Positions 814-27,407 of a stretch of DNA of 64,000 bases are shown piece after piece. The position numbers were made by a program, and so were the translations under genes. Each line of letters starts with the position of its first letter. Positions within the stretch are counted from its first letter, which is position 1. Source of the DNA: Clostridia bacterium (lineage in GTDB: Bacteria; Bacillota; Clostridia; Christensenellales; UBA3700); the NCBI GenBank assembly GCA_029061605.1, contig JAIDRT010000030.1, positions 1,693 to 65,692 of the forward strand, given 5' to 3'. The notes beneath the pieces were generated by a model, which saw nothing but the letters and a program-made list of their open reading frames with translations, was not told the origin of the DNA and ran no database searches.

Positions 814-843
814 TTGACAGGTTACATTTGGATAATTTATAAT
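814..843 (+). promoter_or_regulatory. Putative early (cro-side) promoter
   Basis: TTGACA (814-819), an 18-nt spacer, then TATAAT (838-843), back to back with the repressor promoter. Confidence 0.55.
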
Positions 844-847
844 CGGA

Positions 848-864
848 GTAACTCAATAAGTTAC
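848..864. promoter_or_regulatory. 17-bp operator-like palindrome GTAACT-N5-AGTTAC
   Basis: Perfect inverted hexamers just downstream of the -10 of the early promoter. Extra half-sites occur at 799-804 (AGTTAC) and 820-825 (GGTTAC). Confidence 0.5.
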
Positions 865-873
865 GGAGGTAAT

Positions 874-1080
874 ATGAATACAAAAAAATTGGAAACAGCA
901 ATCGTTGCGAGTGGATTAACAAAAAGAGAGGTCGCAATTAAAATCGGCATTACTCCAAAAACGTTCTATAATAAAATGAAAAAAGGCGCTTTTGGCACAG
1001 ATGAAGTTATTAATATGGTAGATTTGTTGAACATAAAAAATCCAAGCGAAATTTTTTTTTGCGAAATAAGTAACTTATAA
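874..1080 (+). CDS. Cro/XRE-like small HTH regulator
   Basis: 68 aa counted from ATG 874, behind RBS ACGGAGG. HTH 'LTKREVAIKIGITPKTFYNKMKKG'. Divergent from the repressor. Confidence 0.7.
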   Translation: MNTKKLETAIVASGLTKREVAIKIGITPKTFYNKMKKGAFGTDEVINMVDLLNIKNPSEIFFCEISNL

Positions 1081-1086
1081 AGTTAC
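1070..1086. promoter_or_regulatory. Second copy of the GTAACT-N5-AGTTAC palindrome, overlapping the cro stop codon
   Basis: Same hexamers and same N5 spacing as at 848-864. Confidence 0.4.
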
Positions 1087-1145
1087 CAAAATAAACAGGA
1101 GGGCAAGATGAAAGACACGAAGCAATTAGCGGAGGTAACTGCAAA

Positions 1146-1532
1146 ATGAACTATAAAGCAGTGTTCAAGTTAAAGGATGGAATAGAAGGTGAAATGAGGA
1201 TTACTGCTCAAAGCGATAGCGACGCATTTATGGCGACTTGTAGAATGTTCGCATTGCAGGACTCTGTAGAGTGGCGTATAGATAAGATGGAGTCGATCTT
1301 TAATCCTAAAGAGGAGATGAAAAAGGCATTGGATAATATTGAGAGGTTAGAGGAACAAGTCAATATGGAATATGATTATGCGCAAGACAAATTGAAAGCG
1401 TTGCCAGAAAAACTTGAGGGCGGGTATGAGCATCAGAGACGAGAAGAGTTAGTAGACAAACTTTACGAGGCGAGTGAATATCTTGCCGACGTTAAGAAGT
1501 ATTTGCAAGAATCTTCTGTATTAATAGAGTAA
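1146..1532 (+). CDS. Hypothetical early phage protein (128 aa, acidic, coiled-coil C-terminal half)
   Basis: ORF with a GCGGAGG RBS. No recognisable motif. Confidence 0.5.
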   Translation: MNYKAVFKLKDGIEGEMRITAQSDSDAFMATCRMFALQDSVEWRIDKMESIFNPKEEMKKALDNIERLEEQVNMEYDYAQDKLKALPEKLEGGYEHQRREELVDKLYEASEYLADVKKYLQESSVLIE

Positions 1533-1565
1533 ACAGATAATCAAAAGGTATAGGAGTTGAGGAGA

Positions 1566-1808
1566 ATGAGTTTTATAGAAGAACAAATCAAAAAGTATGA
1601 ATTTCAATTAAAGTTACTTAATAGCGGATTTTCAACACTGGTAGAGCGCAGAGAAATAGATATCATCAAGAACAAAAATTTACTAAAAATCATTTTAGAT
1701 ATAATAGAAGACACTCAAAGGAGTTTGGACTATTACAATAAAAGGCTGGACGAAGAGGATGTCGCAATAAATTTGGGAGAAAAAAGAATAGGAGGAAGTA
1801 ATGGATAA
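1566..1808 (+). CDS. Hypothetical early phage protein (~80 aa, coiled-coil)
   Basis: ATG 1566 lies behind TAGGAG. Its end overlaps the next start. Confidence 0.45.
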   Translation: MSFIEEQIKKYEFQLKLLNSGFSTLVERREIDIIKNKNLLKIILDIIEDTQRSLDYYNKRLDEEDVAINLGEKRIGGSNG

Positions 1809-2220
1809 ACTGACAAAGCAAATAATCAAGTGCAAAGTAATGCAATATCCGCATTTGCAGAATAAAATAGCAGACGATATTTCAAGCGTAAGTGAGAAAA
1901 TCACAAGCGTTGGAGTGTCAGGCGGAAAGTGCTCAGTGAGGAATATCAGCAGTTTTGACGAACGGCTGGTAAGTATAATGTGTAAGGAGGATTACTTATG
2001 GCGCGAGGCAATAGAGTTGGCAGCGGATTATTTTAAAGAAAGAGGACGTGAAGAAGTAGTCAAAGCAGTTGAAGGGTTGTATTGGAAGCGCACGCTAAAT
2101 GCAGACGGCGTGGCATTAAAACTAAATACTTGTAGAGCGCAGGTATATAGGAAAGTTGATGATTTTTTTGAAATGGTGCATAAATACGCTATTAGAAATG
2201 GAGTGATGTCCGTAAATTAG
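1801..2220 (+). CDS. Putative late-gene transcriptional activator (ArpU/RinA/sigma-70 region-4-like)
   Basis: 139 aa, positioned upstream of the packaging genes. The C-terminal segment 'ADGVALKLNTCRAQVYRKVDDFFEMV' looks like a region-4.2-type HTH. Confidence 0.45.
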   Translation: MDKLTKQIIKCKVMQYPHLQNKIADDISSVSEKITSVGVSGGKCSVRNISSFDERLVSIMCKEDYLWREAIELAADYFKERGREEVVKAVEGLYWKRTLNADGVALKLNTCRAQVYRKVDDFFEMVHKYAIRNGVMSVN

Positions 2221-2229
2221 CGTAAACAT

Positions 2230-2480
2230 ATTGAGACAAGTCTCATACAAAAACTAATATAAAGGGATGTAAAATGGTAATGTCCAAAAGAGGACGAGAG
2301 CGCTGAATAGCGTATGATATATGACTATAAAGACATCTAAAGCGTTGGCAAAAGTGCTGGCGCTTTCTCTATGCAGTAGTTCTCTTAAGGATAAAATATA
2401 AGGCGCTACATTGACAGTAAAATTAATGTGTGGTACAATAATAGCGCCTATCTCTAGGAGGAAGAGAGTGGCAAAGAAAA
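2230..2480 (+). repeat. Copy 1 of a ~250-bp direct repeat (leader module of moron cassette 1)
   Basis: Aligns to 3431-3681 at a constant offset of 1201-1202 nt. By eye the identity is roughly 85%, with two 1-nt indels. Confidence 0.9.
2411..2439 (+). promoter_or_regulatory. Promoter of cassette 1
   Basis: TTGACA, a 17-nt spacer, then TGgTACAAT (extended -10). It is flanked by the inverted heptamers AGGCGCT (2401-2407) and AGCGCCT (2443-2449). Confidence 0.6.
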
Positions 2481-3085
2481 AAACAAAAATAAATAGCGCA
2501 GGATATGAGCAGCCGGTAAATGAAAAGTCGCAATATCAAAGTTACAATAGCGACAATCTGGATATTGAAGATAATTCATACATAAGTGAAATAAAAAGAT
2601 ATCGTCATAATACAAAATACACTCAGATTATAGCAGACGATATAATATCTCAAAGAGGTGCGCAAAGTGGGGCGTTGGACGTTGAGGGCAAGGATGGAGA
2701 ACGCGCCCAAAAACACGCAAATATGATGTATGAGACGTTCAGGAATATAAAGAGTGACGTACCTAAGATAGCCGCAAGCACAGGTTATTCAGAGCAGGAA
2801 ATACAACGAGTAAAAAATCATCTGTTTTTTAATGAGTATGAACTTGCAGACGGAAAACACAAATTTTACCCAGACTTTTATCAGGCTCAGTCGTGGGATA
2901 GGTTGAGAAAAGGAGAGCCAATCGAAATTGATTTCATAATGATAGAGCACGAACTTATAGAAGAGTCGCTTATGCGTAATGGAATAAATTATGATGACGC
3001 TCATAACACAGCAAACGAGACAGCAAATTATCAGCAAGCAATAAAGGAGATTAAATATGGTCAAGTTAAGAAAAAAGGAAATTAA
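2468..3085 (+). CDS. Moron cassette 1, large protein: polymorphic-toxin or polyvalent-protein-like module (function unknown)
   Basis: GTG 2468 lies behind AGGAGG and is homologous to ATG 3669 of cassette 2. The N-terminal ~50 aa are shared with the cassette 2 protein (MAKK..., 'NT.Y..I.A.DII'). The C-terminal domain is different ('FYPDFYQAQSWDRL...IEHELIEESL...AHNTA'). Confidence 0.6.
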   Translation: MAKKKTKINSAGYEQPVNEKSQYQSYNSDNLDIEDNSYISEIKRYRHNTKYTQIIADDIISQRGAQSGALDVEGKDGERAQKHANMMYETFRNIKSDVPKIAASTGYSEQEIQRVKNHLFFNEYELADGKHKFYPDFYQAQSWDRLRKGEPIEIDFIMIEHELIEESLMRNGINYDDAHNTANETANYQQAIKEIKYGQVKKKGN

Positions 3086-3299
3086 AGACGGTATAATATA
3101 TTATTATTATCAAATTGAAGGAAAAGGTGAGTGGGGAGAGTTATTTATAAATACTAATAACGGTCAAAATGGCTGGAACATACTTGCCGAAGGAGATGTT
3201 GAGTGGTTTGACAATTGGCGTCAACACGCTTATTACAGGATGAGAGAATATGTCAAAGAGAACAATTATCCAGAGACAGATATGGTTGCTTGGGGTTAA
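3057..3299 (+). CDS. Moron cassette 1, small partner (immunity or antidote-like, 80 aa)
   Basis: Overlaps the upstream ORF by 29 nt. RBS AAGGAG. Small Trp/Tyr-rich acidic protein. Followed by a terminator. Confidence 0.5.
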   Translation: MVKLRKKEIKDGIIYYYYQIEGKGEWGELFINTNNGQNGWNILAEGDVEWFDNWRQHAYYRMREYVKENNYPETDMVAWG

Positions 3300-3319
3300 T
3301 TAGAATTATTAAAAAAATG

Positions 3320-3345
3320 AAGCGCTCTTTATGGGGCGCTTTTTC
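3320..3345 (+). terminator. Intrinsic terminator of cassette 1
   Basis: AAGCGC / GCGCTT stem followed by a T-run. Confidence 0.6.
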
Positions 3346-3430
3346 GTACCTAAAGTTGAAGTAGTTTGAAAAGATACGTAAGTACATTATAAGCAATAGA
3401 GTTATACTCGTAAATTAACAATAAAAAATA

Positions 3431-3681
3431 ATTGAGACAAGTCTCATACAAAAATGACAATAAAGGGGTGTAAAATGGTATTGTCCAAAAGAGGACGAGA
3501 GCGCTAAATAGCGTATGGTATATGACAATAACGTCATTAAAAGCGTTGGTAAAAAGTGCCAGCGTTTTCTTTATGCAGTAGTTCTCTTAAGAATAAAATA
3601 TAAGGCGCTGTATTGACTGCAATATTAAAGCGTGGTACAATAATAGCGCCTATCTCTGGGAGGAGAGAATGGCAAAGAAAA
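3431..3681 (+). repeat. Copy 2 of the ~250-bp leader repeat
   Basis: See copy 1. Confidence 0.9.
3613..3641 (+). promoter_or_regulatory. Promoter of cassette 2
   Basis: TTGACT, a 17-nt spacer, then TGgTACAAT. The same flanking AGGCGCT / AGCGCCT inverted heptamers are present. Confidence 0.6.
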
Positions 3682-4130
3682 TAGGCGCGGGTGGAAAGCC
3701 GCAAGAATATAATGAGCAGAATGGACAGTATGGATGCAGACAGCCCAAGAAGTTTAAGCAAAATACAAGTTATTCCGAGATACTTGCGGCTGATATAATA
3801 CAACTGCCTGACGAAACATTTCCAAGATCAGTTGGTGCAAAGTGGGCAAACTATGAGATTGAACTTGCTGATGGAGAGATAGTAAGGCTTCAAGAAGGAA
3901 GCAGACTTCATCACAAAGAAGTCTTTGCCGGAAAAGGAACTAAAATACCAATTCGAGAAGTAGACAGGCTTGTAGAGAAATATGGAGGTAAAGCAGAAAA
4001 CTGGCAAAAGATAAAAGCCATTGGTACTATAGAACATAGCAATGGAGAGATAGAAGAGATAGAGATTCATTGGTATGAGGAGCCACAAATAGGCAGAGTA
4101 AAATTAAAAGAGAAAAAAATAAGGAGATAG
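3669..4130 (+). CDS. Moron cassette 2, large protein: same N-terminal module as the 2468-3085 protein, with a different toxin-like C-terminal domain
   Basis: 153 aa. RBS GGGAGGAG. The C-terminal region 'GKGTKIPIREVDRLVEKYGG...WQKIKAIGT...IEIHWYEE' resembles C-terminal modules I recall on Firmicute phage head-morphogenesis and polymorphic-toxin proteins. I did not verify this. Confidence 0.55.
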   Translation: MAKKIGAGGKPQEYNEQNGQYGCRQPKKFKQNTSYSEILAADIIQLPDETFPRSVGAKWANYEIELADGEIVRLQEGSRLHHKEVFAGKGTKIPIREVDRLVEKYGGKAENWQKIKAIGTIEHSNGEIEEIEIHWYEEPQIGRVKLKEKKIRR

Positions 4131-4131
4131 A

Positions 4132-4317
4132 ATGAAAAGAGTAAAGTATATTGGAAAAACCAAGATGGACTATATTGTCCAGAATAACGATATGGATTTA
4201 ATTCCTAATAAGATTTATGAGATAATTGAAGAGACAGAGCGTAGTTACATTGTAATAGACGAAAGCGGTGAAGATTATGCATATCCGAAATCTTTTTTTG
4301 ATTTAATAGAAGATTAA
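4132..4317 (+). CDS. Moron cassette 2, small partner (immunity or antidote-like, 61 aa)
   Basis: Starts 1 nt after the upstream stop. RBS AAGGAG. Small acidic protein. Followed by a terminator. Confidence 0.5.
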   Translation: MKRVKYIGKTKMDYIVQNNDMDLIPNKIYEIIEETERSYIVIDESGEDYAYPKSFFDLIED

Positions 4318-4360
4318 ATTAGTCGTATAAGGAAATATAATGTAATAACAGCACAAACAC

Positions 4361-4388
4361 AAGGCACTCTAACAAGGGTGCTTTTTTC
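4361..4388 (+). terminator. Intrinsic terminator of cassette 2
   Basis: AAGGCAC / GTGCTTT stem followed by TTTTT. Confidence 0.55.
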
Positions 4389-4411
4389 ATATTCAAAAGG
4401 AGGCAATGGCA

Positions 4412-4873
4412 ATGGCGAAATATAATTGGAGCGAACTCAAGATTGCCTTTCTCAACGGCAATTATAAAAGTCTAAAGGATTTTGCAGAGGAAAGAAACAT
4501 ACCGTATCGGACGTTGCGAAAGTCAGCCGTAGGCTGGGGTAAAGAAAAGCGAGAAAAGACAGGAAATATACAGAAAGAATTATTTGCAAGTCAGATAGAA
4601 AAGGGAAGTTCTTGCAGTACATCAAGAAATGAAAGAATATTAAATGCGCAAGACAAGTTGCTTGAATTTTATGAAAATATAAGTCCTAAAGACATAATAG
4701 AGTGGGCGAAGGACTCGCCCAAGATATTTGTATCATTGACAGCAGGTTTGATCAACTTGCAAAAGATACACAGGCTCGCAGAGGGATTGGATAAAGCGAG
4801 TAGCGTAGAGGACGCAAGCGCAAAGTTGGATAAACTTTGCGAGGCTATAAAGGATGTCAAGAAAAATGAATAA
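4412..4873 (+). CDS. terS: Terminase small subunit
   Basis: Lies immediately upstream of TerL and overlaps it. N-terminal HTH-like 'SLKDFAEERNIPYRTLRKSAVGW'. ATG 4412 has better RBS spacing than ATG 4406. Confidence 0.7.
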   Translation: MAKYNWSELKIAFLNGNYKSLKDFAEERNIPYRTLRKSAVGWGKEKREKTGNIQKELFASQIEKGSSCSTSRNERILNAQDKLLEFYENISPKDIIEWAKDSPKIFVSLTAGLINLQKIHRLAEGLDKASSVEDASAKLDKLCEAIKDVKKNE

Positions 4874-6197
4874 TTATTTTACGTCAAAACAACGTCAAGT
4901 TCTTAGACAGGCAAATAAGCGTTGGAACATCTTGACTGGGGCGGTGCGCAGCGGAAAAACCTTTGTGTCGTACTTTCTAATACCTGAGAGAGTAAAGGAA
5001 CACTACGATAACAACATACTATTCGTTGGCAAAACTGTAAACACGTTAGATAGAAACGTATTTGATCCAATGCGTTCAATCTTTGGAGACAAGTATATTT
5101 CCAAGATAATAGATAAGCGGTTTGTATACATATTTGGCAAGAGATGTTACGTCGTGGGAGCAAACGACGAAAGAAGCATAACGAAGATACAGGGCTTATC
5201 GCTTGGGTATTGTTATTGCGACGAGTTGACTACGTATCCCGAGAGTTTCTTTCAGATGCTAAAGTCAAGATTGGATTTAAGCAATAGCAAATGCGACGCG
5301 ACTTGCAACCCAGAGAGCCCAAGCCATTTTGTCAAGCAACATATCGACAACAACGACTTAGACATATATACTGAGCATTTTACGATATACGACAATGACC
5401 GGCTACCTGCGGAGTTTGTCAAAAACTTAGAAAACGAGTATAGAGGTACGGTATACTTTGACAAGTGGATACTTGGAAAGTGGGTCAAAAGCGAGGGGCT
5501 TGTATTCCCATTGTTTAGACGAGAGAAACATTATATAACGTATCAAGAATATTTAAAATATTATGGCAGCAATAAGATAAAGTACGTAATATGGGGAGTG
5601 GACGGCGCTACGACCAACGATAGTACGGCAATTGTGCCTGTTGCGATTTTGCAGACAGGGCAAGCGGTTGTGCTCGACTTGTTCTATCACAATCCAAAGG
5701 TAAACGGTCAGTTGTCTAACGAGCAACTTATACCTTACATTAAGCAATATATGGATGATATGGAAAGTAAGTACCGATTAAAACAAAACGGCGCTTATTT
5801 TTATACCACGGTGGATTGCGCTGCGGCAGACTTGAAGATCACGCTTGGCTCGCACTTGCCAGCATACTTCAACGTGCATAAGTACACTAAGAAAGATATA
5901 CAGCAGACGACGGATATTGTCAACAATGCTTTGGGGCGTAACGCTGTGATTATTCTTGATATCGGCGGTTATTATAACTACGTTAGGCGGACTTTTGTTA
6001 AAGAGGTATCTCCACTCGTAGTTGATATTGAGAATATGACTTGGGATGCAGACAACAAAAAGTACGACCCAAGCGTGCCTAACGATTGCGCAGACGCATT
6101 TAGATATGCATTATGCGCGTACTTTATCAATCCTGATAATCTTTGGAGTACGCCGGAGGCTAATATCTATTTTAAGGAGAGAATAATAAATGAGTGA
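4854..6197 (+). CDS. terL: Terminase large subunit (PBSX/Terminase_3-like)
   Basis: 447 aa. Walker A 'GAVRSGKTF'. 'CYCDELT' is Walker B-like. The C-terminal nuclease part contains 'WGVDGA...' and 'NDCADAFRYA'. Confidence 0.85.
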   Translation: MSRKMNNYFTSKQRQVLRQANKRWNILTGAVRSGKTFVSYFLIPERVKEHYDNNILFVGKTVNTLDRNVFDPMRSIFGDKYISKIIDKRFVYIFGKRCYVVGANDERSITKIQGLSLGYCYCDELTTYPESFFQMLKSRLDLSNSKCDATCNPESPSHFVKQHIDNNDLDIYTEHFTIYDNDRLPAEFVKNLENEYRGTVYFDKWILGKWVKSEGLVFPLFRREKHYITYQEYLKYYGSNKIKYVIWGVDGATTNDSTAIVPVAILQTGQAVVLDLFYHNPKVNGQLSNEQLIPYIKQYMDDMESKYRLKQNGAYFYTTVDCAAADLKITLGSHLPAYFNVHKYTKKDIQQTTDIVNNALGRNAVIILDIGGYYNYVRRTFVKEVSPLVVDIENMTWDADNKKYDPSVPNDCADAFRYALCAYFINPDNLWSTPEANIYFKERIINE

Positions 6198-7809
6198 AGA
6201 ATATCAAAAATTGCGTCTTAACGAAAAGACGCCTGAATACGTAAATGCCTCGGCATTCAATACGTATGCAACTTACGCATTGACGAGTCACGCCGCATTC
6301 TATGCAATGGTAGACTCAACATATAACGGATTTATGAGGCGGTGGGTGCAGAATTGGCTGTGGTGGTATGATGGATACGTGCCATATTTTCATAATCAAC
6401 AGAACGGTATATTCAGTACTAGGATGGGACAAGCGCTCGTTGATAAAATGGCAAAAAAAGTCGTCGGCGGTCGAGTAATGTTCAAAGTCAGCGGAGAAGA
6501 GCGCAATTTACGCAAGGCATCTGATAGACCGTTGACCAACGAGGCGTTGCAATATGTCAACGAGTGGGCGAAAGATACTGACTTTGCAGGAGCCGTTAAG
6601 CGCGTCGTGAGGTTTGCCGCAGCGGCAGGCACTGGGCTTTTGAAGATAAACAAGAGCGGCGGTAAGTATTGGGTGGACGCGTTACGCTTTGACAGTTTTT
6701 TGCCTACGGTAGACTTTAGAGGTCGAATTATTGACGTAAAGTGCTATCTGCAACCTTATACTAGAATGTCGGCAGATAGAAAGGGCAACGGAACAGCGTA
6801 CTATCTCGTTGAGCATAGATATTACGGAGAGTATACGAGGGCGGACGGTAAGGTGATTTGGAACGCTCCTCTTGCGACATATGAAGTGCACGCCGTCAGC
6901 GGCAGTATTGAACTTGCACAGTATGACGCAGGTAAAGGAAGCAGAGTGCCTTACGAGAGTTTACCTAAAGCAGTTCGTAAGAGTATACGCAAGGACTTCG
7001 GCGTTATGATAGACAAACCTATGTTGTTGCCGTTTTCTGAAGATATGAGCCTTGGTTGCGAACTTGTCAAATGGACGGACGGCGTAAGCAATCTGCCTCA
7101 AGTACCATTTGGTGAAAGTTTGTTGGCGCCTGTCATTGCACAACTTATGGCGTACGACTATTACTTCTCGGCGTTCAACACGGATATGTACACCGGCAGA
7201 GCAAGAGTGTTGACCTCAACGGCTATGATGTCTCCAAACAATGGAGGGCAAAACAGCGGTATGGATAATTACTTGCTCACCAAAATACCTAATTATAGCG
7301 GAGACGACCAAAAACCGATACCGCTACAGTTTGACTTGCGTTCGCAATCCTGGGCGGAGATACGTGACCATATAATACAAAATATATCTATTCTTACAGG
7401 AATCAACGTGGCTACTATAGCCTCATTTCTCAATGACAGTCAAGCGCAGAAGACGGCTAGAGAAGTCAGCGTAGAGGAAAATGAGACGGCGTCTGGCATA
7501 TATGAAAAGAGAGAAATTATAGAGCGACCGATAAATCGCATAATCAAGTCGATTATACGACTTGCCGGCTACAACGACGATATCGTCGTTCGGTGGAGTA
7601 CGAGCGAACTTATGAATGCTTTCAATCGTTTGGATTACGCTGTGTCCGGTGTTAACAACGGAATAATGTCCAAGGAGAGAGCAATCAAGATGCTTAATCC
7701 AGATGACGACGACGAACAAATTTTTGACGAGTTAAAAACCATTGAAGAGGATGGCAATAATGCTCAAGTCCAACCAATTGATAATTTGCGGAAAAGATCA
7801 AAATCGTAG
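6190..7809 (+). CDS. Portal protein
   Basis: 539 aa. Overlaps the TerL stop. Size and position are typical of a portal. Confidence 0.7.
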   Translation: MSEEYQKLRLNEKTPEYVNASAFNTYATYALTSHAAFYAMVDSTYNGFMRRWVQNWLWWYDGYVPYFHNQQNGIFSTRMGQALVDKMAKKVVGGRVMFKVSGEERNLRKASDRPLTNEALQYVNEWAKDTDFAGAVKRVVRFAAAAGTGLLKINKSGGKYWVDALRFDSFLPTVDFRGRIIDVKCYLQPYTRMSADRKGNGTAYYLVEHRYYGEYTRADGKVIWNAPLATYEVHAVSGSIELAQYDAGKGSRVPYESLPKAVRKSIRKDFGVMIDKPMLLPFSEDMSLGCELVKWTDGVSNLPQVPFGESLLAPVIAQLMAYDYYFSAFNTDMYTGRARVLTSTAMMSPNNGGQNSGMDNYLLTKIPNYSGDDQKPIPLQFDLRSQSWAEIRDHIIQNISILTGINVATIASFLNDSQAQKTAREVSVEENETASGIYEKREIIERPINRIIKSIIRLAGYNDDIVVRWSTSELMNAFNRLDYAVSGVNNGIMSKERAIKMLNPDDDDEQIFDELKTIEEDGNNAQVQPIDNLRKRSKS

Positions 7810-7888: not shown

Positions 7889-8072
7889 ATGCAACGAAGA
7901 GGCATTCACCTCTTTATATACAAAGCCTTAGGCAGGGCTTTAACTTGCTAGGACTACCATAGACGCGTGGCTAGGCTGGTTGCGGCGCAGTCGCAAGAGG
8001 CTAAAAACGGCTGGCGCGAGTAAAGGTTGTCCGAAACGAATATATTCGAGACCCAAACAGGAGGTTAAAAAA

Positions 8073-8507
8073 ATGGGTATTTTTAAAAAGAAGATGTCAA
8101 AAGAAGACATCATAGCAGCAATCAACGCTCTTTCAGATGATGAGCAATGCGAGTTGTTTGAAGAGTTGGCAAACGAACTCGAAGAAAATGACGAGGACGC
8201 TCAAGTCGATAATGAGCAAGAACAAGAGACAAGCGACGGAAAAGCAACTCGAAAAGTAATTGAGGAAAGCGAATCGGAACGTGTCGAGGCCGAAGATAGC
8301 GAAGAAGTCAATTCGGCTCTGGGGGCGCGGATAAGCGCGTTAGAAGAGCAACTTGCGGACATCTCAGAGAGGTTGGAGCAAATGCTTTCAAGTCTTGAAA
8401 ACAAAGACTTTGGAGCGCAATCCGGCGGCGGCTCGGAAAAGCCCGCTGAGGAAGAAGACGAAGCGTATATAGACGCTTATTATGCCAAACAACAAAGAAG
8501 AAAATAA
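8073..8507 (+). CDS. Scaffolding protein
   Basis: ATG 8073 lies behind CAGGAGG. 144 aa, very acidic, coiled-coil. Sits between the portal and the capsid genes. Confidence 0.65.
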   Translation: MGIFKKKMSKEDIIAAINALSDDEQCELFEELANELEENDEDAQVDNEQEQETSDGKATRKVIEESESERVEAEDSEEVNSALGARISALEEQLADISERLEQMLSSLENKDFGAQSGGGSEKPAEEEDEAYIDAYYAKQQRRK

Positions 8508-8522: not shown

Positions 8523-9602
8523 ATGGCTAGTATTTTAGGGGATATCAAGACCCCATTCGTAAACGACTTGACTCTTAAGAGGGTTATGTCAAGCGCAGTA
8601 AAAAAGAACATTTTTCAAAACATTTTCACCAAGCCAGGCGAGGCGGTAACTGAGGAATTCAGCGAAGACACGTCCGCTGCTCAAATTCAGGTAATCAGAG
8701 TTAAACCTATCAATGATGATGCAAGACGTATAGGCGGAGCAGTTAACGGTGGCTATTTCAACGAAGACAATGCGGCAATTTCGTCTACGCAGGCTTATCC
8801 TATCAATATGCTTGAGCAAATCGACAGACCTATTGATATTCCTACCAACGCGCAGGATATGATAAACGTCAATCTTGTTGAGGCAGAACTTGCAAATTTG
8901 TCAGGAAGAGTCGCAAGAAACATCAACGCTATGACTATTGCGGTGCAAATAGCAAAGAACTTCAACGATTTGCGCAAAGGATTAGTAGAGAACAACTGGA
9001 TAAAACTTGACGCAGAAAATCCAAACTTTAAGGATGCTATTATTGACGCTGGCGCTCAACTTGACGAGGGTAACGAGGCAGAGGGTATTGACGCATATCC
9101 CGACGATGGCAGAGCGGTATTTATTCGTTCCAAAGTTAAATCTACTTTGCTCAAGACAGGACAACTGATAGTAGGCGGTAGCAATACGGCGCAAGATATG
9201 ATACGCAAAGGAGGACTGGACGCAAGCGCTACTCCTGAAGTTGCAACAAGCGGATATATAGGCGAAGTAAATAATATGCCAGTATACGTTGCAAGCAAGC
9301 CGGTGTGGAGACTCGCGGAGAAATGGCTTGGCTTGGCAGAGGGCGCGTTGGATGGCGTTGAGGCGCTTGTCGTAAGCGGTATTGGTACAGGCAGAGGCTT
9401 GGCGTTCAATCACGCGATCAAGATCGTGGATACTCAAAACGGACAAGGCAAGAGAATTCAACCTTGCTACCGCTTTGGCGCAGAGTGTTGGGACGCGTTG
9501 AGTGTCGTACCTATCGTCAAGAGCGATTTCACCAATCCGTCGGCAGATGCAGACCTTGAGGCAATTCCGCCTAAGTCCAGAACGCCTGTTGCGACGGAAT
9601 AA
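8523..9602 (+). CDS. Major capsid protein
   Basis: 359 aa. Follows the scaffold gene, has a strong RBS, and is followed by a strong terminator. Confidence 0.7.
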   Translation: MASILGDIKTPFVNDLTLKRVMSSAVKKNIFQNIFTKPGEAVTEEFSEDTSAAQIQVIRVKPINDDARRIGGAVNGGYFNEDNAAISSTQAYPINMLEQIDRPIDIPTNAQDMINVNLVEAELANLSGRVARNINAMTIAVQIAKNFNDLRKGLVENNWIKLDAENPNFKDAIIDAGAQLDEGNEAEGIDAYPDDGRAVFIRSKVKSTLLKTGQLIVGGSNTAQDMIRKGGLDASATPEVATSGYIGEVNNMPVYVASKPVWRLAEKWLGLAEGALDGVEALVVSGIGTGRGLAFNHAIKIVDTQNGQGKRIQPCYRFGAECWDALSVVPIVKSDFTNPSADADLEAIPPKSRTPVATE

Positions 9603-12610: not shown

Positions 12611-13366
12611 ATGGCAAAAAAGAAATTTGGAGGTAAAATGCGTCCAGCGAGGATACTTCTTGCTCGCACAGGCAGATTTGTTGATCTTTCAAGAAGTAAA
12701 GAAGATTTGTGGCAAGAGGTTATAGACGGTAATGAAAGTAACGCGAATAGCGGAGTATCCAAGCAAGGTATTAAGATTGAGCGTGTTAGAAAACTTGTAG
12801 ATAAAAAGCATAAAGATGTCAAAAAGAAAAAAGCAAGGGCAAGATTGGCAGATAGGCTTAAGAAAGTTGCGCAGAAGAAACAAAAAGCCTCTTTGGACGC
12901 AAAGCAAAAGATAGCAAACCTAGTACAAAGGTTTAGGAATGGAGAGCGAATAGACCTAGAGACGGAGATTATGGAGTTTGACTCTCGACCCCAAAAGGCG
13001 CTCAAAGAATTGATTGGAGAAAACCTAGATCTAAAAACACTCTCTTTACACCTTGACGAACTCAAGCATATGGAAAACGATCACGGAGAGAATGGTACAT
13101 CAAACCGTGATATGAGGGATATAAAAGATTATCAAGACATAATAGATATTATTACTGATTTTGACGAGCCTCCAAAGTTAGGATTGGACAAAAAAGGAAA
13201 TATAGATCTGTCAAAAAAATATATGGATAAAGATAATAAACCGTCCCCAAAGGTCGCATTTAAAAAGAGTATAAATGGAGTAAAGAGGTTGGCGATTTTA
13301 GCAATATCTAACAACAAGAAGAAACGAGCGCGGTTAATTACAAGTTATAAGGGGAATAAAAAATGA
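12611..13366 (+). CDS. Highly basic Lys-rich protein (possible internal or DNA-associated virion protein)
   Basis: 251 aa. RBS GGAGGA. Contains long K/R runs. Confidence 0.4.
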   Translation: MAKKKFGGKMRPARILLARTGRFVDLSRSKEDLWQEVIDGNESNANSGVSKQGIKIERVRKLVDKKHKDVKKKKARARLADRLKKVAQKKQKASLDAKQKIANLVQRFRNGERIDLETEIMEFDSRPQKALKELIGENLDLKTLSLHLDELKHMENDHGENGTSNRDMRDIKDYQDIIDIITDFDEPPKLGLDKKGNIDLSKKYMDKDNKPSPKVAFKKSINGVKRLAILAISNNKKKRARLITSYKGNKK

Positions 13367-13529
13367 CAAGAGCCATTAAGACTCTTGTCGGACACGTGAG
13401 TTATGCTGCTTTCGCCCCTTCCTCTTACGTCCAAAACCGATCCGTATCACTACTGTTATTATACGCAATAATTGAGGTAAAAGTCAATGGGTTGTGCAAA
13501 AAAAATCGCAGTCGGAATTTTTTATATGA

Positions 13530-14048
13530 TTACTGACCGCTATCAGTCGGCTTGAGATAGTGCTTTTCGAGTATGAGGTACACGACGTCTAGGACAAGCA
13601 AGACAAGGAAGATATAGAATGTAAAGCAAAAGTTGGTGGATAGTTTAACCGTGTTTGCGTCTATATCGTCCATAAGAAAGCCAATCCCTTGCAGGAACAT
13701 AACGAGAACAGCGCAAACAAGCGACCAAGTAAAATTGAATTTCTTGCACTTGAAGTTGCGCACGACGCTAATAATCGCCAAGACAAGGCAGGCTATTAAC
13801 AAAGCCGTATAAATAACATAAACAGCAATGTTTAACTTGTTATTTAAATAGGATTGAGTTGCTTGATCATATGTAATGTTGAACATTGAGTAGGGGACCC
13901 AAATTATAAATGGAAGGAATCCATCAAACTGACCGTTTTTAAGTTTTATATTATCTAACGGAAAGAAAAATAAAACCAAATAGAGAATGGATAGCCCAAG
14001 CGTTATCCATTTTTTGTTCTTAGAAACATTAATAATAAAAGTCTTCAT
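13530..14048 (-). CDS. Reverse-strand polytopic membrane protein (moron) inside the tail module
   Basis: 172 aa counted from ATG 14048, with about five hydrophobic helices. It is the only minus-strand gene between 874 and 21263. Confidence 0.55.
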   Translation of the reverse strand: MKTFIINVSKNKKWITLGLSILYLVLFFFPLDNIKLKNGQFDGFLPFIIWVPYSMFNITYDQATQSYLNNKLNIAVYVIYTALLIACLVLAIISVVRNFKCKKFNFTWSLVCAVLVMFLQGIGFLMDDIDANTVKLSTNFCFTFYIFLVLLVLDVVYLILEKHYLKPTDSGQ

Positions 14049-27317: not shown

Positions 27318-27338
27318 TGGCAGAGAGTGAGGGATTTG
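27318..27338. repeat. Proximal copy of the att-type direct repeat (inside the tRNA-Ser 3' end)
   Basis: See 21439-21459. Confidence 0.75.
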
Positions 27339-27407
27339 AACCCTCGGAACGGTTTCCCGTTCACACGATTTCCAATCGTGCGCCTTCGACCACTCAGCCA
27401 ACTCTCT
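27318..27407 (-). tRNA. tRNA-Ser(GGA): tRNA-Ser (anticodon GGA)
   Basis: The reverse complement folds as a cloverleaf. Acceptor AGAGAGT / ACTCTCT. Anticodon arm CACGA-TTGGAAA-TCGTG. Long variable arm GAACGGGAAACCGTTC. T-arm GAGGG-TTCAAAT-CCCTC. Discriminator G and an encoded CCA. Confidence 0.9.

Follow-up and report, generated by a model that had tools for sequence, protein, structure and literature searches.

Positions 2230-4388 of a 64-kb stretch of Clostridia DNA (the window, to whose positions all coordinates refer) probably hold two self-contained polymorphic effector/immunity cassettes in tandem, within the late-promoter region of a temperate phage or prophage from gut Clostridia. Each cassette consists of a leader DNA, a gene for a larger protein (effector 1 or effector 2), a gene for a small acidic protein (partner 1 or partner 2) and a terminator. 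Comparison with relatives of these cassettes (the L-numbered loci, L001 etc.) shows domains shared with capsid-borne cargo, fixed partners, modular leaders behind which the cargo is swapped and a position beside the packaging genes, and from these features toxicity, neutralisation and packaging are inferred. The promoter and terminator anatomy is read from sequence patterns and predicted folding. An earlier note on this DNA had described twin units with a shared leader, an extended -10 promoter, a large open reading frame (ORF), a small acidic ORF and a terminator, and all of these were recovered, with the repeat 88-92% identical and the promoters, ORFs and hairpins confirmed. The genes and terminators of the two cassettes are listed below, with the Shine-Dalgarno sequence (SD) and isoelectric point (pI) where noted.

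2468-3085, plus strand: effector 1, 205 aa, GTG start, SD AGGAGG at 2456-2461; leader peptide at residues ~1-60, helical family 1 domain at ~62-205
3057-3299, plus strand: partner 1, 80 aa, pI 5.07, immunity-like, with its own SD AAGGAG; overlaps effector 1 by 29 nt
3319-3345, plus strand: terminator of cassette 1, 10-bp stem, -14.5 kcal/mol, then TTTTT
3669-4130, plus strand: effector 2, 153 aa; N-terminal leader peptide, then a beta-rich family 2 domain at residues ~42-150
4132-4317, plus strand: partner 2, 61 aa, pI 4.46, DUF6501 member, immunity-like, with its own SD AAGGAG; begins 2 nt after the effector 2 stop
4361-4390, plus strand: terminator of cassette 2, -12.0 kcal/mol, then TTTTTT; 16 nt before the terS-like gene

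Cargo domains and partner genes

The C-terminal domains of both large proteins recur on MuF or minor-capsid-2 proteins. For family 1, a profile search of 1.84 billion representatives returned 2075 clusters (clusters at 50% identity), and many of the matches were the C-terminus of proteins of 350-730 aa. When ten of the longer members were scanned, a Phage_Mu_F or Phage_min_cap2 domain was N-terminal in eight of them and PBECR3 was found in one. The family was also found inside two giant, polyvalent proteins of 5865 and 6656 aa. It is present in deposited, cultured phages of Streptococcus, Staphylococcus and Clostridium, and the GenBank labels on its carriers include 'minor head protein' and 'capsid and scaffold protein'. 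In the induced S. suis phage Clyde the domain is part of a protein annotated as 'minor head protein', whose gene is followed by an overlapping small ORF in the partner position.

For family 2, 53 homologous clusters of similar size were found. In 37 IMG/VR loci this domain mostly forms the last ~110 residues of MuF-like proteins of 440-540 aa, and in two of them it sits on the portal protein. Conserved residues are H83, the HE-x2-E motif (residues 161-165) and H179 in family 1, and E76/G77 and H134/W135 in family 2. The alignments A6 and A8 were too diverse for locus scans. Judged from these comparisons, each window protein corresponds to the cargo end of a capsid-internal protein, standing as a gene product of its own.

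Toxins that are fused to MuF and encoded next to an immunity gene form an established class, in which MuF is hypothesised to be the capsid-targeting part (PMC5576092, PMC11699363, PMC12226406). It is a recognised and barely tested class, with two cargo types characterised, Apk2 (PMC12226406) and Bxa (PMC11699363), each with an adjacent small neutralising protein, and with delivery still a hypothesis. The window cassettes resemble the MuF toxins of Jamet et al. 2017 (PMC5576092) in belonging to a temperate Firmicutes phage, in lying in or beside the packaging module and in having a variable C-terminal cargo, of a kind found elsewhere on Phage_Mu_F or Phage_min_cap2 proteins, that is followed by a small immunity-type ORF. 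The two small downstream ORFs, of 80 and 61 aa, fall under the 150 aa of this class and overlap or abut the large ones. The context is that of a temperate phage or prophage near the terminase and portal, with an S24/helix-turn-helix (HTH) repressor gene and with terS-like, terL and portal genes directly downstream.

The cassettes differ from MuF toxins in their carrier, which is a leader peptide of 40-60 aa and not a MuF domain, and in lying upstream of terS rather than after the portal. They also differ in being two tandem cassettes, each of which has a late-promoter leader, a consensus promoter and a terminator to itself, and in that neither cargo domain belongs to a known toxin family. At E <= 1 the only Pfam match to the large proteins was a chance match to X8, and no MuF domain (PF04233/PF06152 type) was found in them; their lengths of 205 and 153 aa leave no room for one. 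MuF polymorphic toxins therefore share with the window the cargo domains, the small ORFs and the temperate packaging context, lack a counterpart here for their defining domain, and are the closest known kind.

It is highly improbable that the two large proteins are ordinary structural or assembly modules of MuF-type head proteins which now stand as separate genes, with no role in conflict. Such an origin would suit the GenBank names quoted above and the fact that both domains are met most often at the C-terminus of MuF or minor-capsid-2 proteins. However, many MuF proteins do not have these domains, short MuF being the majority (PMC5576092), and behind one and the same leader the place of these domains is taken by ADP-ribosyltransferase, Zeta-toxin and nuclease domains. 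In addition, each domain has a small partner of its own, this one phage carries a stack of two unrelated domains, and family 1 occurs in polyvalent proteins of 5865-6656 aa as well. Matches to ordinary structural or DNA-metabolism families, which the earlier note had named as one outcome that would refute its proposal, did not occur for the large proteins.

Partner 2 is a member of DUF6501 (Pfam PF20111; E 1.8e-6, 28.2 bits against a gathering cut-off of 23.8, residues 1-57). A DUF6501-like ORF of 52-62 aa came next after family 2 in 19 out of 19 loci examined, whether the domain was solo, MuF-fused or portal-fused, and in further solo loci. These ORFs have the signature MKVKYxGK...EKGWYRIVDxSGEDYLYPP..FEIVE and usually overlap the stop of the domain gene by ~10 nt. 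Close relatives of partner 1 follow family 1 in the solo loci L001 and L044, and divergent ORFs of the partner 1 kind, of 78-85 aa, follow it in most of the MuF-fused loci examined, such as L150 and L151, the latter ORF reading MVYIKKNYIKDNKISYFYQPEKRGEFGEV...ACWY. No relationship was found between partner 1 and partner 2.

The partner keeps its place whatever the carrier of the domain, which matches the immunity proteins of polymorphic toxin systems, and each domain with its fixed small partner looks like a cognate, immunity-like pair. The partners would neutralise the large proteins, whose putative toxin role is read from their context, and a partner most likely confers immunity by blocking the effector, both in the cell that produces it and in the lysogen. 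The two cargo/partner families are uncharacterised, and through its pairing with family 2 DUF6501 gains a probable role. The earlier note had proposed a polymorphic-toxin or polyvalent organisation with the small ORFs in the immunity position and the shared N-terminus as a possible packaging signal. The capsid-borne relatives, the fixed partners and the mosaic N-termini described below all argue for it.

The leader peptide and cargo swapping

The two large proteins are alike at the N-terminus only, as seen by BLASTP (residues 43-60 against 27-44) and in profile-profile comparison, where the signal was restricted to the N-terminal part. The leader of effector 1 reads MAKKK..NSAGYEQPVNEKSQY .. 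YRHNTKYTQIIADDII and that of effector 2 reads MAKKIGAGGKPQEYNEQNGQYG .. FKQNTSYSEILAADII, and the two align as variants of one motif. Two elements of it can be written as motif A, AG-x3-Q-x-[YV]-x-E-x2-[GS]-x-Y, and motif B, [YF]-[RK]-[QH]-N-T-x-Y-x2-I-[IL]. At the nucleotide level the identity of the leaders ends ~12 nt inside the ORFs, therefore the protein N-termini share motifs and not an identical block. The earlier note had given the proteins a shared first ~50 aa and unrelated C-termini; the restriction of the similarity to the N-terminus stands, and the common block dissolves into these motifs.

In the alignments of both families the N-termini were mosaic, with a few leader types common to both: MAxKxGAGGKPQEYxExxGxYG, ..NSAGExQPVxExSxY, MxxFDESKHPRDxxGKFT and ..QWITVNGxHIPI, often trailed by [YF]RQNTxYxxIL. 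The motif of the window leaders is related to a widespread leader, F-x-E-x-x-HPRD-x-x-GKFT (the HPRD leader). A profile built from HPRD leaders only, with no window sequences in it, reached significance across the 268 ORFs of the window for the two effectors alone (E 1.3e-5 and 2.4e-3). Scanned with the same profile, IMG/VR gave 140 loci. The N-terminal region used as a query in a large protein database returned the query alone.

In 47 distinct small proteins, whose C-termini are very different, the HPRD motif lies 4-60 residues after the start, and in ten of the small proteins with this leader that were scanned the domains included ADPrib_exo_Tox, ART-PolyVal with GNAT, Zeta_toxin, PBECR1, PBECR3 and LPD13. 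It is also internal in proteins of ~700-1700 aa, in 1-3 copies, several hundred residues in and before a long C-terminal part. We read these internal copies as domain or module boundaries of polyvalent proteins, judging from their placement. No mention of this leader was found in the paper on polyvalent proteins, from which the strings 'HPR' and 'linker' are absent (PMC5512222).

The window-type leader is rarer than the HPRD type and was found in Clostridia and Christensenella metagenome-assembled genomes (MAGs). It heads families 1 and 2, an ART-like domain (L163), two more types (L127, L128) and a domain with an HHxRHAxEMG motif that has a 70-aa zinc-ribbon-like partner (L158-L160, L162, L165). 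In L161, ~200 nt of upstream DNA is near-identical to that of L159, L160 and L162, yet its cargo is family 2 with DUF6501, whereas the other three have a different domain with the 70-aa zinc-ribbon-like partner. L166, with a related leader, likewise carries family 2 with DUF6501. The same leaders are found on families 1 and 2 and on at least three other cargo types, which is the conserved N-terminus with diverse C-termini of a polymorphic toxin. The earlier note had asked for a survey of C-terminal variants behind one leader and had seen a lack of variability among the homologues as a threat to its proposal. Such variants were seen directly, in L161 against L159, L160 and L162.

Several genes with a related start were also seen side by side in one IMG/VR contig (IMGVR_UViG_3300006204_000048, 37 kb, L044-L048), where at least four begin with MFDESKHPR..GRFT..YRQNT.Y.(D/E)I(L/I), each with a different C-terminal part. 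On this contig a solo family 1 gene with an 80-aa partner lies between the apparent 3' end of a portal gene and an acidic scaffold-like ORF, which is the usual MuF slot. In L007 (also L156, 4725-5330) a third gene follows the pair of family 2 and DUF6501 and starts with MTAHEGREPQ.., a sequence that recurs as the internal linker 'YPQYLIRMTAHEGRPKESGAISGA' in some family 1 and family 2 proteins and may mark another module boundary. The first half of this third gene is a HHLRHAREMGYKN-type domain, which in L165 is fused behind a GAGGKPQ leader.

In the mechanism that we propose, the leader peptide would bring a separate effector into the procapsid and dock it there, a trans-acting counterpart of what fusion to MuF or to the portal achieves in cis. 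The effector would then exit with the DNA into the next cell, where it would have a bacterial target and serve in host take-over, kin discrimination or competition. No MuF or minor-capsid-2 gene was recognised near the portal (Pfam and PHROG, next seven ORFs of at least 90 aa downstream of the portal), which is consistent with the need for a trans-acting tag. We suggest, as a tentative possibility, that the short leader (motif A or its commoner HPRD sister, then motif B) is a portable tag for capsid loading and ejection, and so a general plug-in system for phage-delivered proteins.

If this is true, Firmicutes tailed phages, including those without MuF, could load any small effector into the head in trans. 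The leader element would mark the boundaries of polyvalent modules, and the cargo cassettes would carry a sigma-A promoter in their first codons for lysogen immunity. The peptide carrier could also be used as a handle for loading chosen proteins into phage particles, and as a motif-based finder of injected proteins in metagenomes.

Solo PBECR versions in phages were noted by Iyer et al. 2017 (PMC5512222), and the window system shares several traits with the polyvalent proteins of that study. Family 1 is found inside the 5865- and 6656-aa proteins and also beside PBECR3, and the HPRD leader lies at the junctions of ~700-1700-aa proteins and heads solo PBECR, ART-PolyVal and LPD13 domains. Unlike those multidomain chains, the window proteins are single-cargo solos. 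In the AlphaFold models each has one folded domain behind a disordered leader, against the 2-15 domains of polyvalent proteins.

A second likeness is to the toxins of contact-dependent inhibition (CDI) and Rhs systems and to nuclease colicin operons, which have a conserved 5' trafficking part, a swappable 3' toxin part and an immunity gene directly downstream. In CDI and Rhs systems, for which orphan toxin/immunity cassettes were reportedly described by Zhang et al. in 2012, cassettes are likewise stacked in tandem and exchanged through the conserved part. The window differs from them in that delivery would be by the phage capsid and not by a secretion system, and in that its conserved part is a short peptide together with a non-coding promoter leader. 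By analogy, the system would work like a polymorphic toxin system with the trafficking part shrunk to a peptide.

The internal proteins of T4 offer another parallel. They are otherwise unrelated small proteins of a hypervariable locus which have a short N-terminal capsid targeting sequence; they are packaged, cleaved by the prohead protease and ejected with the DNA, and some counter host defence. The short shared N-terminal peptide of the window proteins, known from sequence, resembles this arrangement by analogy only, with no sequence relation, and the T4 proteins differ in having no immunity partner.

Promoters in the leader DNA and at the domain junctions

The promoter features of the cassettes are as follows.

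2232-2245 (copy 2 at 3433-3446), no strand assigned: perfect palindrome TGAGAC-AA-GTCTCA, candidate operator for the late regulator, read from sequence
2270-2279 (copy 2 at 3471-3480), plus strand: P1, putative regulator-dependent late promoter, TAAAATGGTA (-10 box and conserved bases), with no good -35
2339-2370 (copy 2 at 3540-3574), plus strand: 12-bp hairpin followed by TTTCTCT, terminator-like, between P1 and P2
2401-2449, including the bracketing repeat, plus strand: P2, sigma-70-type extended -10 promoter by sequence pattern
2641-2646, plus strand: TATAAT where effector 1 passes from leader to domain (codons D-I-I), a weak copy of the junction promoter, read from sequence
3431-3664, plus strand: second leader copy, with palindrome 3433-3446, P1 -10 box 3471-3476, hairpin 3540-3568, P2 3613-3641 and SD 3658-3663
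3791-3799, plus strand: TGaTATAAT, a perfect extended -10 box in codons A-D-I-I at the leader/domain junction of effector 2, read from sequence

The leaders at 2230-2462 and 3431-3664 are ~90% identical (88-89% ungapped over 2230-2353/3431-3554 and 2350-2462/3552-3664, and 92% in a MAFFT alignment), far more than chance would give. No third copy was found in the 64-kb window, and searches for the exact leader DNA in IMG/VR, in GTDB genomes and in JGI metagenomes, and by blastn among deposited phages, gave no match. When aligned with the upstream regions of relatives, the leader splits into two promoter-like units, P1 and P2. The single leader of ~240 bp described in the earlier note is therefore a real repeat, and its upstream half is a second promoter-like unit with a palindrome, a -10 box and a hairpin. 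Read from its sequence, the leader is a duplicated late-promoter region joined to a consensus extended -10 promoter. In the twin arrangement, one cassette would have been added beside the other by recombination through the conserved leader, and this duplication shows how such cassettes can be acquired and stacked. Both cassettes were present in all four gut-metagenome runs, from one study, and a single-cassette intermediate was not seen in them.

The 2-nt loop of the palindrome excludes an RNA hairpin and makes it a DNA site. In the relatives a palindrome of another sequence is found at the equivalent spot, ~20-25 nt upstream of the P1 -10 box. P1 itself aligns with TGnTATAATGGTA in L001, L004, L005, L009, L010, L052, L074, L083, L157, L159 and L167, and with the variant TGCTATAATGATA in L007. 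A regulator-like gene of 134-143 aa occupies the equivalent slot upstream in relatives, in at least two families, and the differing palindromes together with these regulator families have the look of an activator-dependent late promoter. The hairpin that separates P1 from P2 is predicted to fold at -14.7 and -14.1 kcal/mol in the two copies, which differ by pair-preserving changes. Most relatives have a hairpin, often with a T-run, immediately before P2. In lytic growth, transcription from P1 would read through this hairpin and yield the effector protein.

P2 is conserved in every relative. In unit 1 it reads TTGACA-17-TGgTACAAT (2411-2439; TTGACA 2411-2416, TGgTACAAT 2431-2439), with 11 of 12 matches and the TG motif, and in unit 2 it reads TTGACT-17-TGgTACAAT (3613-3641). 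Two subtypes were recognised. In subtype A (the window, L007, L010, L083, L158-L167), P2 is followed by an untranslated region of ~28 nt with an SD and then by the start codon. In subtype B (L001, L004-L006, L009, L074), the ATG lies 1 nt past the -10 hexamer and the SD is within the promoter spacer, therefore the P2 transcript cannot contain the start of the large ORF. The conserved job of the promoter is thus more likely to be expression of the partner gene, an argument that is confined to these six loci as far as the start codon is concerned. The earlier note had called the units autonomous morons, which is plausible in the window, where P2 has its own SD and start, and does not carry over to those relatives in which P2 cannot serve the start of the large ORF.

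An inverted repeat brackets P2, AGGCGCTA (2401-2408) and TAGCGCCT (2442-2449), with copy 2 at 3603-3610/3644-3651. A repeat of this kind, of 6-11 bp, is also found in L007, L010, L083, L158, L159, L162, L163 and L165-L167. Its arms co-vary across loci (GCGC to GCAC/GTGC), some pairs would be G-U on the plus strand, and the pairing of cognate arms (-12.6 kcal/mol) is modestly stronger than that of non-cognate arms (-9.8 kcal/mol). Read-through transcripts could form an RNA stem from it, or it could be a pair of half-operators.

One further copy stands apart from the phages. In L164 (a GTDB MAG of an uncultured Clostridia bacterium, 2200-3130), family 2 with DUF6501 lies directly after a terminator and follows an ORF whose end resembles a ribosomal-protein gene; P2 is present, P1 is absent and the upstream DNA shows no phage genes. 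This has the look of an orphan cassette with its 5' boundary at the P2 -35 box.

Other functions of the leader DNA were considered and rejected. Gating of translation in the window, with P2 transcripts hiding the SD or start, was unsupported, the effector SD being predicted unpaired in both P2 and read-through transcripts. A mini-ORF, MVMSKRGRER, was also dropped; its ATGGTA belongs to the conserved -10/discriminator TATAATGGTA, and the frames downstream are wholly different in relatives (in L001, M-V-S-stop). Both leader copies fold better than shuffled sequences (z -3.4 and -3.9). However, no Rfam covariance model matched the leader at gathering score, the only Rfam hit in the window being a tRNA at 27321-27407, and in the relatives the stretch between P1 and P2 is ~40-110 nt and keeps just the hairpin before P2. 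A known or conserved structured RNA was therefore rejected, and the leader is best read, from its pattern, as a promoter/terminator architecture and not as an RNA gene.

A further promoter is found within the coding sequence. Where the family 2 domain starts in MuF and portal fusions, the codons also read as a sigma-70 extended -10 promoter. At the junction in L027 this is TTGACA-16-TGaTATAAT, with 12 of 12 matches, in codons ..D-[TI]-I-K-L... A promoter-like site was present at 16 of 17 fused junctions of family 2, against 9 of 1534 background windows (0.6%) from the same loci, and at 9 of 17 fused junctions of family 1, against 23 of 1030 (2.2%); these loci are partly related, so that the counts overstate their independence, which is a point against our interpretation. 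The peptide shared by the window proteins at this place, 'ADDII/AADII', is explained by the -10 box being encoded at homologous junctions.

Most simply, the conserved function of P2 and of the junction promoters would be to transcribe the partner gene independently of late transcription. These constitutive sigma-A promoters would keep the partner on in lysogens, so that the carriers of the prophage are protected. A junction promoter would account for the combination, in a single mobile cassette, of a toxin that is made late and packaged with an immunity that is always on. In colicin operons, too, the immunity gene has its own promoter inside or at the start of the toxin-coding region, a likeness to the window. 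No mention of a native or junction promoter was found in the MuF-toxin papers that were checked for it.

The main rival, which we regard as unlikely, is that the pairs are resident morons of a toxin-antitoxin (TA) or abortive-infection type. P2 would then express the pairs in the lysogen, they would act inside the cell in prophage stabilisation or anti-phage defence with no packaging, and the leader peptide would be left over from a fusion. This agrees with the consensus promoter, SD and terminator that each unit has of its own, with the SD predicted to be accessible in P2 transcripts and with the order of a large protein and then a small acidic partner, which is like that of some TA pairs. 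The orphan copy in L164, outside a phage context and directly after a terminator, also fits. However, PADLOC and the TA families gave no match, and none of the four proteins belongs to a known TA or defence family (PADLOC, Pfam, NCBIfam), DUF6501 aside. The same domains are found on MuF proteins, family 2 on portals and family 1 in polyvalent, virion-associated proteins. In the loci with available context, the genes have the orientation of late genes and belong to the packaging or head module or adjoin it. The leader motif is kept in 140 IMG/VR loci with many cargo types, which argues for a function and not for a relic.

Another, quite unlikely explanation is that the large proteins are packaged effectors of anti-defence or host take-over that are harmless to the producer, with the partner as a packaging chaperone or adaptor, or as a timing inhibitor that is released on ejection. 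In its favour, a role against host defences on entry has been proposed for polyvalent and MuF-fused cargo (PMC5512222), and neither effector is in a known toxin family. The partner gene is also coupled in translation to the effector gene or overlaps it, an arrangement common among chaperone genes. Against this, the constitutive promoter serves the partner and, in several relatives, not the start of the effector, which suits protection of the lysogen better than a late chaperone. Apk2 and Bxa, the characterised MuF cargo, are toxic, and a small adjacent protein neutralises each of them (PMC11699363, PMC12226406).

Several observations also weigh against our preferred reading of effector/immunity cassettes loaded through their leader. 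The large proteins had no Pfam, PHROG, NCBIfam or PADLOC match and no PDB fold match. The AlphaFold cores were confident (predicted local distance difference test 80-93 for family 1 and 80-92 for family 2, with disordered N-termini), and Foldseek found no match with E < 0.08, either for the two models against PDB or for the family 1 model against BFVD. Profile searches against PDB sequences were silent for both domains. The leader could be a gene-fission relic of fused ancestors, or a protease site, and not a docking tag. A mechanical count of small downstream ORFs behind genes with the HPRD leader gave 66% against a background of 44%, which is non-discriminating. P2 of the window has its own SD and start, with the SD predicted unpaired, and the effectors are perhaps also made in lysogens, which suits a resident role, as a moron or TA-like unit, no less than packaging. 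The element was found in gut-metagenome DNA runs only, and no RNA runs were found for it.

Flanking genes and further observations in the window

The cassettes are flanked by a regulator-like gene and by the packaging genes.

1801-2220, plus strand: regulator-like gene, presumed late regulator, 139 aa, directly 5' of cassette 1
4406-4873, plus strand: terS-like gene (PHROG terS, E 0.012)
4854-6197, plus strand: terminase large subunit gene, terL (Terminase_6N, E 1.9e-13)
6190-7809: portal gene (phrog_533, E 5e-30)

A phage immunity region lies at the start of the window, with the S24/HTH repressor on the minus strand (60-713), then a cro-like ORF (814-1080) and two small ORFs before the 139-aa regulator-like ORF. 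Both cassettes are placed between this regulator-like gene and terS, and in the four relatives with sufficient context the cassettes lie between a regulator-like gene and terS or terL. The sole library match of the 1801-2220 protein was a weak one to a PHROG transcriptional regulator (phrog_36, E 0.0057), and it had no detectable similarity to the regulator-like proteins at that slot in relatives. The 'late activator' that the earlier note had placed upstream of the cassettes is supported by this weak regulator match and by its position.

No terS promoter was recognised between the terminator of unit 2 and terS. The sole candidate is a P1-like TATAATGTAAT at 4337-4347, 5' of that terminator, and with no promoter after the terminator the late operon seems to depend on read-through. 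A series of '-10 box, short leader, hairpin and T-run' is seen three times, at 2270-2370 (cassette 1), 3471-3574 (cassette 2) and 4337-4390 (terS). By analogy, it resembles a promoter-proximal terminator that requires antitermination, in the style of lambda PR'-tR'/Q, and the 139-aa regulator may be an antiterminator instead of an activator.

Downstream of the portal there is an acidic scaffold-like ORF (7980-8507) and a capsid-like ORF (8523-9602), and Pfam and PHROGs recognised no MuF or minor-capsid-2 gene between the portal and these two ORFs. The latter ORF, a capsid candidate of 359 aa, had zero family matches. From the cro-like gene to terS (814-4405) there are three small ORFs and the two cassettes only, with no replication genes visible. 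In the related phages L001 and L002, an SSAP, a DnaA/IstB-like gene and an SSB are found upstream of the equivalent regulator. The element may have its replication genes to the left of base 1, or it may be a PBSX-like producer of particles that is defective in replication.

A third effector was considered at 12611-13366 and dropped, as the leader-peptide profile did not match it and PBECR3 was below the cut-off. This ORF, in the tail region, encodes a basic protein of 251 aa (pI 10.05) with the N-terminus MAKKKFGGK and a sub-threshold PBECR3 match (E 0.0015), and a 57-aa ORF (13363-13536) comes after it.

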